Origin: Clostridia bacterium
Lineage (GTDB): Bacteria; Bacillota; Clostridia; UMGS1883
NCBI GenBank assembly: GCA_051866635.1
Contig: JBJDXJ010000026.1
Span: 1-64,000, forward strand
Length of the DNA stretch: 64,000 nt
Reading direction: 5' to 3'
The notes under the pieces were generated by a model that saw only the letters and a list, made by a program, of their open reading frames with translations, was not told the origin of the DNA and searched no databases. Both the position numbers and the translations under genes were made by a program. The first letter of the stretch is position 1. Each line of letters begins with the position of its first letter. Positions 17,277-20,403 of this stretch are shown one piece after another.

Positions 17277-19373
17277 ATGACAAACTACAAACAGTGGGAA
17301 GGTTTTGACAAAGGTACATGGGTTAAAGAAATCAATGTACGTAGCTTCATCAGACACAACTACACTCCCTACGATGGCAACGAAGACTTCCTTGAATCTC
17401 CTACAGAAGACACTTTAGCTCTTTGGAATCAGGTTCTTGAACTCAGTAAGCAGGAAAGAGAAGCAGGCGGAGTTCTTGACATGGATACAAAGATTATTTC
17501 TACAATCACTTCTCATGGTCCCGGATATCTTAACAAGGACATTGAAAAAATTGTCGGTTTCCAGACAGACAAGCCCTTTAAGCGTGCTCTTATGCCCTAT
17601 GGCGGTATCCGTATGGCTGAAAAAGCTTGTGCAGACAACGGCTACACAATCGACCCGGAAGTAAAGGAATTCTTTACAACACACAGAAAGACTCACAATG
17701 CAGGTGTATTTGATGCTTACACACCTGAAATGAGAGCTTGCCGTTCCAGCCATATCATCACAGGTCTTCCCGATGCTTACGGCAGAGGCAGAATTATCGG
17801 TGACTACCGCAGAGTTGCTCTTTATGGTGTTGACCGTCTTATCGAAGACAAGATGGAACAGAAGGCTACAACACGCTCTGCTATGTATTCTCAGGTAATC
17901 CGTGACAGAGAAGAATTAGCTGAACAGATTCGTGCTCTTGAAGCTCTTAAGCAGATGGCAGCAAGCTACGGCTATGACATTTCTCAGCCCGCAGCCAACA
18001 CACAGGAAGCTATTCAGTGGCTCTATTTTGGTTACCTTGCAGCTGTTAAGGAACAGAACGGTGCAGCAATGAGCCTTGGCAGAACTTCTACTTTCATCGA
18101 TATTTATGCTGAACGTGACCTTAAAAACGGCGTATTTACAGAAAAGCAGATTCAGGAATTTGTAGACCACTTCATTATGAAGCTTCGTCTTATCAAGTTT
18201 GCTCGTACACCTGAATACAATGCACTCTTCTCCGGTGACCCCCAGTGGGTAACAGAATCCATTGGTGGTGTTGCAATTGACGGCAGACACATGGTAACAA
18301 AGATGAGCTACCGTTACCTTCACACACTTAGAAACTTAGGTCCTGCTCCCGAACCCAACCTTACTGTTCTTTGGTCAACACGTTTGCCCGAAAACTTTAA
18401 GAAATTCTGTGCTAAGACTTCTATCGAAACAAGCTCTGTGCAGTATGAAAACGACGACCTTATGAGATTTACACATGGTGATGACTACGCTATCGCTTGT
18501 TGCGTATCTTCCATGAGAGTTGGTAAGGAAATGCAGTTCTTCGGTGCAAGAGCTAACCTTGCTAAGTGTCTTCTCTACGCTATAAACGGCGGTCGTGATG
18601 AAGTTTCCGGTAAGCAGGTTGGTCCTGAATACCGTCCTATTACAAGCGAATATCTTGACTATGATGAAGTAATGCACCGTTATGATGAAATGATGCGTTG
18701 GCTTGCAGGTGTATATGTAAATACACTTAACATCATTCACTATATGCATGATAAGTACTGCTACGAAAAGATTCAGATGGCTCTCCACGATAAGAAAGTT
18801 ACACGTTGGTTCGCAACAGGTATCGCAGGTCTTTCCGTTGTAGCCGACTCTCTTTCCGCAATTAAGTACGCAAAGGTTAAGGTTATCCGTGACGAAACAG
18901 GTCTCGCTGTAGACTACAAGGTTGAGGGCGACTTCCCCAAGTACGGTAACAATGATGACAGGGTTGACAATATTGCATATGATATTGTACACCGTTTCAT
19001 GGAACATGTAAGGAAGAATCATACATACCGTGATTCTATCCCCACAACAAGTATTCTTACAATTACTTCTAACGTTGTTTATGGTAAGAATACCGGTGCT
19101 ACACCTGATGGCAGAAAGAAGGGCGAACCCTTCGCTCCCGGTGCTAACCCCATGCACAGAAGAGATACACACGGTGCTGTAGCATCCCTTTCTTCTGTAG
19201 CTAAACTTCCCTTCATCGATGCTCAGGATGGTATTTCCAACACATTCTCTATCATCCCCGGTGCACTTGGTAAGGACGATAAGATTTTTGCAGGCGACAT
19301 CGAAGTTGATCTCGACTGTTCTAACGGTGCTTGCGGCACACCTACCCTTTTTGAAGGTCTTGACGCAGAATAA
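17277..19373 (+). CDS. pflB: Pyruvate formate-lyase catalytic subunit without the glycyl-radical domain; novel CX4C tail
   Basis: [17 protein letters not shown], active-site [19 protein letters not shown]. Ends [13 protein letters not shown] plus a foreign tail, with no RVSGY motif. Confidence 0.93.
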
Positions 19374-19414
19374 TTTGCATTTAATTAAATTTTAATTTTA
19401 GGAGGATAAACATT

Positions 19415-19657
19415 ATGGCAGCAACACAGAATCAAATTGACAACCTTGTATCACTTTTGGACGGTTATGTAGAAAAAGGCGGACATCACCTTAACGTAAA
19501 CGTATTTACAAAAGAAACTCTTCTTGACGCTCAGGCACATCCCGAACGTTATCCTCAGCTTACAGTTCGTGTAAGTGGTTACGCAGTTAACTTCATCAAG
19601 CTCACAAAGGAACAGCAGGATGAAGTTATCTCCAGAACATTCCACGACTCTATCTAA
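19415..19657 (+). CDS. Stand-alone glycyl-radical domain of PFL (GrcA/YfiD-like)
   Basis: Own [18 protein letters not shown]...[15 protein letters not shown] glycyl-radical motif. Confidence 0.93.
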
Positions 19658-20403
19658 TGAACGGACGTATTCACTCCAGCGAAAGCTTCGGTACTGTTGA
19701 CGGTCCGGGAGTACGATATGTACTGTTTATGCAGGGTTGTCCCATGCGTTGCAAGTATTGTCACAATCCCGACACATGGGAAGTATCAGGAGGATATGAT
19801 ATAACAGCATCCGAAGTTATCGCTGAATACAATCGTAACCGTGCTTTTTACAAAAAAGGCGGTATTACCGTTACAGGCGGAGAACCTTTGATGCAGGTTG
19901 ATTTCTTGATTGAGCTTTTCACTTTGGCAAAAAAAGAAAACATTCACACTTGTATTGATACTTCAGGTATAACATTCAAGCCTGATAATATGGAATATAT
20001 AAAAAAGCTGGACATTTTGATGGGATTAACAGACCTTGTTATGCTTGATATAAAGCATATTGACCCTATATGTCACAAGGAGCTAACAAAGCAGGATAAT
20101 TCAGGTATTTTGGCATTTGCTAAATATTTAGAAGGAAAAAATATCCCACTTTGGATAAGGCATGTTATTGTTGAAGGCATCACAGACGATAAAAATGACT
20201 TAATTAAATTAGGTAACTTTATCGGTAAACTGCATAATCTTCAGGCACTTGACGTTCTTCCCTATCATACAATGGGCGTGAATAAGTATAAGGAGCTTGG
20301 TATCCCCTATCCATTGGAGGGTATGCCTGCACTTACACCACAGGATGCATATAAGGCAAAGGAATTCATTATGGAAGGCATCCGTATGGTACATCACAAA
20401 TAA
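19657..20403 (+). CDS. pflA: Pyruvate formate-lyase activating enzyme (radical SAM)
   Basis: SFGTVDGPG, CPMRCKYCHNPD, TGGEP; TAATG overlap with the upstream gene. Confidence 0.95.
   Translation: MNGRIHSSESFGTVDGPGVRYVLFMQGCPMRCKYCHNPDTWEVSGGYDITASEVIAEYNRNRAFYKKGGITVTGGEPLMQVDFLIELFTLAKKENIHTCIDTSGITFKPDNMEYIKKLDILMGLTDLVMLDIKHIDPICHKELTKQDNSGILAFAKYLEGKNIPLWIRHVIVEGITDDKNDLIKLGNFIGKLHNLQALDVLPYHTMGVNKYKELGIPYPLEGMPALTPQDAYKAKEFIMEGIRMVHHK

Follow-up and report, generated by a model that had tools for sequence, protein, structure and literature searches.

A pyruvate formate-lyase locus with a separately encoded glycyl-radical chain and a conserved two-cysteine tail in a Clostridia bacterium

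The window analyzed here is a 64,000-nucleotide stretch of DNA from a Clostridia bacterium (UMGS1883 lineage; GenBank assembly GCA_051866635.1, contig JBJDXJ010000026.1, positions 1 to 64,000). It contains a three-gene locus in which a pyruvate formate-lyase (PFL) is divided over two genes: pflB encodes the barrel, a small downstream gene encodes the glycyl-radical domain, and pflA encodes the activating enzyme (Table 1). The three genes lie in three different reading frames. The glycyl-radical motif RVSGY and the RTFH sequence are both encoded in the small open reading frame (ORF) and neither in pflB, and no second RVSGY-type gene was found in the window. This agrees with the initial annotation of the stretch, which had described the radical domain as a separate gene of about 9 kDa in another frame, with its own AGGAGG ribosome-binding site. 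The annotation had also proposed that the small gene is coupled to pflA through TAATG. The overlap of the pflA start with the small-gene stop is present (19655–19659), and since no Shine-Dalgarno (SD) sequence precedes pflA, the two genes are probably translationally coupled. The same −1 overlap occurs in three related loci of the survey described below (L023, L033 and L057) and is not general. Among the nearest relatives, the spacer upstream of the small gene varies in both length and sequence, measuring 25 nt in L023 as well as L064 and giving way to a 17-nt overlap in L057. The codon bias of the small gene (0.76) is that of the highly expressed pflB (0.78), compared to 0.61 for pflA. The strong hairpin beyond pflA is likely the operon terminator, its use on the plus strand being assumed from its symmetry.

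Table 1. Coordinates of the split PFL locus, of other genes in the window, and of related loci
Feature	Coordinates	Strand	Description
pflB, large chain	17277–19373	+	698 residues, 78.8 kDa; frame 2; TIGR01255 match; barrel and active site without the glycyl-radical domain (E. coli ~680–759)
Catalytic cysteine pair C408/C409	18498–18503	+	E. coli C418/C419, from mapping on E. coli PflB
pflB tail part 1 (residues 667–679)	19275–19313	+	FxGD[IL]-type acidic/hydrophobic extension in place of the linker into the radical domain
pflB tail part 2 (residues 680–696)	19314–19364	+	C-x4-C-x2-PTL-x2-GLD motif (C681, C686); shares homology with the middle-gene C-terminus in related loci
Spacer	19374–19414	+	41 nt, AT-rich, stops in all three frames; SD AGGAGG at 19400–19405
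Small chain, GrcA3	19415–19657	+	80 residues, 9.1 kDa; frame 1; complete glycyl-radical domain; NF038360, Pfam Gly_radical
Radical Gly55 codon of small chain	19577–19579	+	E. coli Gly734, from mapping on E. coli PflB
pflA	19657–20403	+	248 residues; frame 0; radical S-adenosylmethionine PFL-activating enzyme; TIGR02493
Hairpin	20407–20443		16 bp with A and T runs on either side; separates pflA from a convergent ABC permease; strand unassigned, reported on the − strand
Rrf2-nifS	7507–9210	−	
pta-ackA	33577–35800	−	
Pyruvate:ferredoxin oxidoreductase	51998–55510	−	
Loci with a middle gene			L003, L005, L007, L009, L016, L031, L037, L038, L042, L044, L048, L049, L068, L069, L071, L072, L076, L080; also L014, L054, L123
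Middle gene of L071	3665–3865	+	
Stand-alone small genes beside spoIIIAA/AB			L010, L019, L058
Stand-alone small genes beside Crp/Fnr-type regulators			L022, L056

Profile searches assign both products to the PFL family. The large chain alone scores 1105.3 bits against the PFL equivalog model TIGR01255 (cut-off 994.2), matching profile positions 1–665 of 744, while the small chain covers positions 664–743. PflA scores 295.6 bits against TIGR02493 (cut-off 231.75); the cognate activase adjoins. The large chain retains each of the nine active-site residues examined: R172, A263, F318, W324, C408, C409, F422, R425 and I596 correspond to E. coli R176, A272, F327, W333, C418, C419, F432, R435 and I606. 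The cysteine pair noted in the initial annotation is thus intact, and the E. coli radical glycine, Gly734, corresponds to Gly55 of the small chain. The large-chain model superimposes on E. coli PFL with a TM-score of 0.91 (65% identity). Compared to E. coli PflB (formate C-acetyltransferase; PDB 1H16/2PFL), the fold, the cysteine pair, the substrate residues, the glycine motif and the adjacent PflA are shared. The differences are that the radical domain, with RVSGY, is on a chain separate from the active site, that the break falls at E. coli residues ~676–683, and that the large chain has acquired a new acidic, cysteine-containing tail. The break differs from both Gly734, where oxygen cleaves the enzyme, and residues 695/696, where the engineered truncation of E. 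coli PFL (tPFL, discussed below) was made.

The initial annotation had likened the arrangement to the E. coli spare part YfiD/GrcA, a likeness that holds in a loose sense. Both YfiD/GrcA and phage T4 Y06I/Vs.6 are small proteins that supply the glycyl radical in trans, and the small chain matches 1586 phage records, including annotated vs.6. However, YfiD rescues a damaged full-length PFL, whereas the small gene of the window adjoins a natively truncated PFL without any radical domain, and no other PFL partner was found in the 64-kb window. YfiD consists of a disordered 60-residue N-terminus and a fold that covers PFL residues 693–759 (PMC8683613). The 80-residue chain lacks this N-terminal extension, aligns with PFL from its residue 5–9 on, and starts about 17 residues earlier than the YfiD fold. 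It fails the GrcA/YfiD model TIGR04365 (91.5 bits, cut-off 170) and the GrcA2 model NF008341 (102.6 bits, cut-off 145), and passes the GrcA3 model NF038360 (168.2 bits, cut-off 158; positions 2–78 of 78), whose NCBIfam name is that of an autonomous glycyl radical cofactor. It also matches Pfam Gly_radical (positions 49–106), and its Atlas clusters carry the name GrcA3. A group of matches (P0401–P0464) includes many GrcA3-like proteins of 141–154 residues with a Ser/Thr/Glu-rich C-terminal extension and a conserved PSDF motif.

A survey of two-gene PFLs, as proposed in the initial annotation, was carried out on GTDB genomes; its search motif was selected so as to enrich for this clade. At least 120 loci were found, and 80 of these were classified, with flanks of up to 4 kb. 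A truncated PFL lies directly upstream of the small gene in 57 loci, the two are fused in nine, no PFL is found in the 2.6–3.9 kb upstream in another nine, and five have short flanks. These motif-selected counts are not frequencies among all PFLs, and 21 of the 57 split loci are near-identical and of the Collinsella type. The 57 split loci share the same split point and a separate ATG start for the small gene, with gaps that range from −17 to 803 nt and occupy all three frames. Carriers include Ruminococcus albus KH2T6, Collinsella aerofaciens, Lachnospiraceae, Veillonella, Atopobium, Gastranaerophilales and a Ureaplasma-like genome; R. albus KH2T6, C. aerofaciens and Subdoligranulum variabile are cultured isolates. 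None of the 120 best large-chain matches contains RVSGY, and the small chain is exactly 80 residues long in 105 of its 120 best matches; a search of 50% clusters returned mostly fragments. The small gene is under purifying selection, with a proportion of non-synonymous differences (pN) of 0.03–0.09 against a proportion of synonymous differences (pS) of 0.6–0.8. In RefSeq, C. aerofaciens has pflB (683 residues) and grcA3 annotated in the same gene order as in the window, as the initial annotation had suspected for other Clostridia. The split is therefore real and conserved, and the claim of a native, constitutive two-gene PFL is well supported; the continuous reading frame in close relatives that was to refute it is not seen among the 120 matches. 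L023, a locus closely related to that of the window, has an in-frame TGA at a Ser position (codon 592) of an otherwise intact large gene, which is likely an assembly error or a recent nonsense change.

Two conserved elements of these loci were missed in the initial annotation. The first is the end of the large chain, which had been described as stopping just after GALGK. Instead, it continues for 32 acidic residues (667–698), including C681 and C686. The two-cysteine tail is kept in 117 of the 119 closest large-chain homologues (the window's own excluded), from the best 120 matches of a search drawn from residues 560–698, which include the tail region. An FxGD-type segment is present in 52 of the 57 split loci and in 117 of these 119 homologues. 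The tail is under purifying selection, with pN of 0.09 and 0.11 against pS of about 0.7 in comparisons with L023 and L064, and pN 0.24 and pS 0.76 with L057. It belongs to no known family, and an AlphaFold2 model of the large chain alone is uninformative in this region (predicted local distance difference test, pLDDT, below 50 for residues 652–698 and below 40 for tail part 1).

The second element is a third small acidic ORF between the large and small genes, found in 18 of the 57 split loci (17 aligned, of 66–84 residues, plus L005); S. variabile has a similar middle ORF. Over residues 1–30, its product shows homology to the beginning of the radical domain (hhalign probability 95%, E 3.5e-8 against the window's small chain). 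The middle protein has no RVSGY, and hence no radical glycine, and ends in a C..AC.xPTL..GLD motif with two invariant cysteines. The gene is under selection, as pN is lower than pS in all 28 pairs among eight close members. No family was matched above cut-off in Pfam, NCBIfam or PDB-sequence searches, which gave weak GrcA3 matches to the N-terminus, and its Atlas clusters are labelled "hypothetical". The structural model is of low confidence (pLDDT 67, predicted TM-score 0.38), with a helix at residues 3–19 and strands at 22–29 and 37–43, and has no Foldseek match at E≤0.001. Another group of ORFs (P0391–P0395) combines, in a single frame, a segment resembling the middle gene with a complete radical domain behind it; this may be a real fusion or the result of miscalled starts. 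In L047, from the Ureaplasma-like genome (translation table 4), a 155-residue ORF that we take to be MarR-like lies between the large and small genes.

The window has no free-standing middle gene: a profile search of its ORFs of at least 30 residues matched the N-terminus of the small chain alone. The C..AC.xPTL..GLD motif is present in the window as the large-chain tail. Tail part 2 scores 28.5 bits against the profile of the middle-gene C-terminus, compared to a maximum of 11.4 among 1000 shuffled sequences, none of which scored as high, and hhalign gives a probability of 91% (E 1.1e-6). The distribution of the cysteine motif is complementary, as a free-standing gene or as a tail: none of the 18 loci with a middle gene has the cysteines in the tail, against 11 of the 39 split loci without one (six of the 11 above 8 bits). 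The simplest history would be a deletion that fused the end of the middle gene onto the large chain. Together, the middle gene and the cysteine tail apparently represent an undescribed accessory element.

The relationship of fused and split forms was examined in a tree of the barrel with tails and radical domains removed (68 rows; quick search with SH-aLRT support only). It omits 19 of the 21 Collinsella-type rows, one protein on a long branch and five loci that are partial or interrupted. A clade of 52 rows (support 99) holds 34 of the 38 split rows together with 18 fused rows. Outside it are the fused proteins of E. coli, Fusobacterium, Azospirillum, a cyanobacterium, Enterococcus, Staphylococcus, C. 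butyricum, E. eligens and A. rectalis, as well as three tail-less split loci (L050, L060 and L067). These three and L070 form a split class whose large chain ends two residues past LGK. At least 11 changes between the fused and split states are needed on this tree. In an earlier 60-row tree, 11 changes were also required, fewer than in any of 200 label shuffles (minimum 13), and monophyly of the split forms was rejected by the approximately unbiased test (p 1.9e-35). Of the 47 fused proteins that lie closest to the small chain, 24 exceed the usual linker length of 37 residues by seven or more, and cysteine occurs in 19 of these 24 linkers. This pattern suggests that re-fusion has happened repeatedly; the set of fused proteins over-represents this clade, and entries known from a single contig may be chimeras. 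Fused and split forms thus interconvert repeatedly.

We consider it likely (probability about 0.8) that the operon pflB'-grcA3-pflA encodes an obligate two-chain PFL, a reading that draws on sequence comparison. The 80-residue chain would dock into the open barrel and supply the helix, strand β10, the glycine loop and the C-terminal helix, giving the normal PFL architecture. PflA would install the radical on Gly55, which would be relayed in trans to C409/C408 to turn pyruvate plus coenzyme A into acetyl-CoA plus formate. An engineered two-chain E. coli enzyme offers a precedent. Once activated, tPFL (residues 1–695) combined with YfiD or truncated YfiD has a kcat of 121 and 204 s−1, respectively, compared to 105 s−1 for the wild type (PMC8683613), showing that radical relay in trans works. 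This system differs in being artificial, weakly binding and poorly activated, with a cut about 15 residues later than in the window (PMC8683613).

The same system also provides one of several observations that weigh against the two-chain reading. With E. coli residues 696–733 removed, YfiD binding is undetectable by isothermal titration calorimetry and activation is 32-fold lower (PMC8683613). A split enzyme therefore needs new binding determinants. The extra N-terminal segment of the small chain, helical in the low-confidence model of its paralogue, the middle protein, and the FxGD extension of the large chain are candidates for the missing affinity. The tail would take the place of the missing covalent link: the FxGD segment would probably mediate docking, and the two-cysteine motif, derived from the third gene, would sense metal or redox state. 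That third gene, free-standing in many relatives, most likely encodes a stand-in without a radical that occupies the vacant helix/β10 slot. However, the tail is not universal, as four of the 57 split loci have none, and 28 of the 39 loci without a middle gene, including the 21 Collinsella-type loci, also lack a nearby cysteine motif. The loci are related, so the 18-of-18 pattern reflects fewer independent events. Fused forms are nested many times within the split clade (18 of 52 rows), so the split is not indispensable. Oxygen also forms sulfinyl radicals on the catalytic cysteines, and the large chain may not be spared. Finally, the PFL scan covered the 64-kb window, and a full-length PFL may be encoded elsewhere in the genome.

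Why the split persists is a separate question. The site at which oxygen cleaves activated PFL is the radical glycine (PMC12338860), and a cut at Gly55 would therefore lie in the 9-kDa chain. That confinement of damage to the small chain, with the tail as tether, is the adaptive reason for the split is a tentative proposal, to which we give somewhat less than even odds and less credence than to docking and relay. Stand-alone small genes fit a replaceable part. They account for the nine loci without a nearby upstream PFL, and the CAMWJC genome has two small-gene copies (L026 and L071), one in a split operon and one without a PFL in the 2.4 kb upstream. That the small chain can be exchanged, as the initial annotation proposed, is likewise tentative, and the frequent switching between forms argues against a strong universal advantage. 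A more elaborate and rather unlikely version is a three-part PFL of gut anaerobes, in which the barrel is joined by a radical chain that can be discarded and by a paralogue of that chain that has no radical and plugs the helix/β10 slot. The two-cysteine element, free or fused to the tail, would then act as a metal or redox switch that gates loading and exchange of the radical chain by oxygen or redox state, making the whole a dedicated system for damage control and subunit exchange.

The strongest alternative is compatible with the two-chain mechanism and concerns the reason for which the split persists. The split may be a neutral fission fixed by co-transcription, or may serve activation or regulation rather than oxygen repair; an untethered radical domain could be easier to present to PflA, with activity set by the level of the small chain or by the middle protein. 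This is quite possible, if a little short of an even chance. It is favoured by the repeated changes of state and rejected monophyly, by the long, cysteine-bearing linkers that look like re-fusion, and by the carriers being gut and rumen anaerobes, with pyruvate:ferredoxin oxidoreductase also encoded in the window. The surroundings of the stand-alone copies point the same way: among 37 neighbour proteins at 10 loci there is no other glycyl radical enzyme, no clear oxygen-stress context and no enrichment of oxidative-stress genes, with spoIIIAA found at three loci and Crp/Fnr-type regulators at two. Together with the switching back to fused forms and the oxidation of large-chain cysteines, this speaks against a purely protective role. 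The existence of extra stand-alone small genes and the conserved cysteine motif fit a damage or redox role.

A conventional spare-part role of the small gene, serving a full-length PFL elsewhere in the genome while the truncated large chain is non-catalytic or vestigial, is improbable. The NCBIfam name and the nine stand-alone loci suggest such a role, and the search for another PFL covered the 64-kb window. The large chain, however, keeps every catalytic residue checked, is itself under strong selection (pN 0.09 against pS 0.63–0.96 over 200 codons), and in 57 of 80 loci immediately precedes the small gene. Moreover, a 900-kb C. aerofaciens record (not a whole genome) has one PFL-like place at E<1e-50. 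Synthesis of a single chain by ribosomal frameshifting, hopping or readthrough, which the adjacent and collinear genes might suggest, is very improbable and was rejected. The length and frame of the gap vary freely, the small gene has its own SD sequence and ATG, a whole third gene (or the MarR-like gene in L047) may intervene, and the large chain ends in a selected tail unrelated to the linker. An assembly error or recent pseudogene can be dismissed: although the window's own large-chain sequence is on one contig only, the 119 other best matches end alike without RVSGY, and cultured isolates share the split.

A two-gene PFL is already recognized by annotation and probably under structural study. 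The GrcA3 and RefSeq annotations hold the split and have no family for the cysteine tail or the middle gene. The two best PDB matches of the large chain, 38LA (687 residues) and 38LB (739 residues), both named "Formate acetyltransferase", lack the radical domain, which makes the initial statement that no biochemical characterization exists doubtful. 38LB has a tail other than a glycyl-radical domain, with an FGE segment and CxxC, of the same type as in the window. The end of 38LA, LGKED, resembles that of the tail-less split class, and this entry could be an engineered truncation. Neither entry is in the Foldseek structure copy ending 2026-04-08, and both are probably newer. The small chain has no match to either at E≤10, and no GrcA3-type chain was found in the PDB. 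A search of the main texts of largely open-access papers found no paper on a native split PFL, GrcA3 or 38LA/38LB. The available part of a June 2026 review of glycyl radical enzymes describes YfiD-type spare parts only (PMC13450708), and those of an F. nucleatum review (PMC12288474) and an aminoacyl radical enzyme paper (PMC11528403) contain nothing on split PFL. What appears to be new is the middle gene and the presence of its cysteine motif in the large-chain tail; the split itself is partly known.

The surroundings are those of an ordinary clostridial chromosome, with dap genes upstream of the locus, a convergent sugar ABC transporter, ATP synthase, pta-ackA and pyruvate:ferredoxin oxidoreductase; the last would give the cell a second route from pyruvate to acetyl-CoA. 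A promoter scan of the window was uninformative: it gave nine sites where 8.5 were expected, and neither the spacer nor the region upstream of pflB had one. Rfam gave no matches in the window. A 377-residue ORF at 25295–26428 (minus strand) has no NCBIfam match; it presumably resembles a fusion of cysteine-rich DUF523-type and DNA-alkylation-repair-type domains.

Fermenting bacteria of the gut and rumen obtain much of their formate and acetyl-CoA from PFL, whose fragility toward oxygen limits both the cells and biotechnological use of the enzyme. The value of the present finding is lowered by the split being already in NCBI models and apparently in the PDB, and annotation pipelines may mistake such loci for a spare part next to a truncated pflB. 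If the two-chain reading is correct, a natural enzyme of this kind would show how a radical domain can bind well in trans, where the engineered E. coli tPFL failed, and would open the step between activase and radical domain to study on an 80-residue protein. The middle protein and the cysteine tail are concrete candidates for the missing binding or regulatory element.

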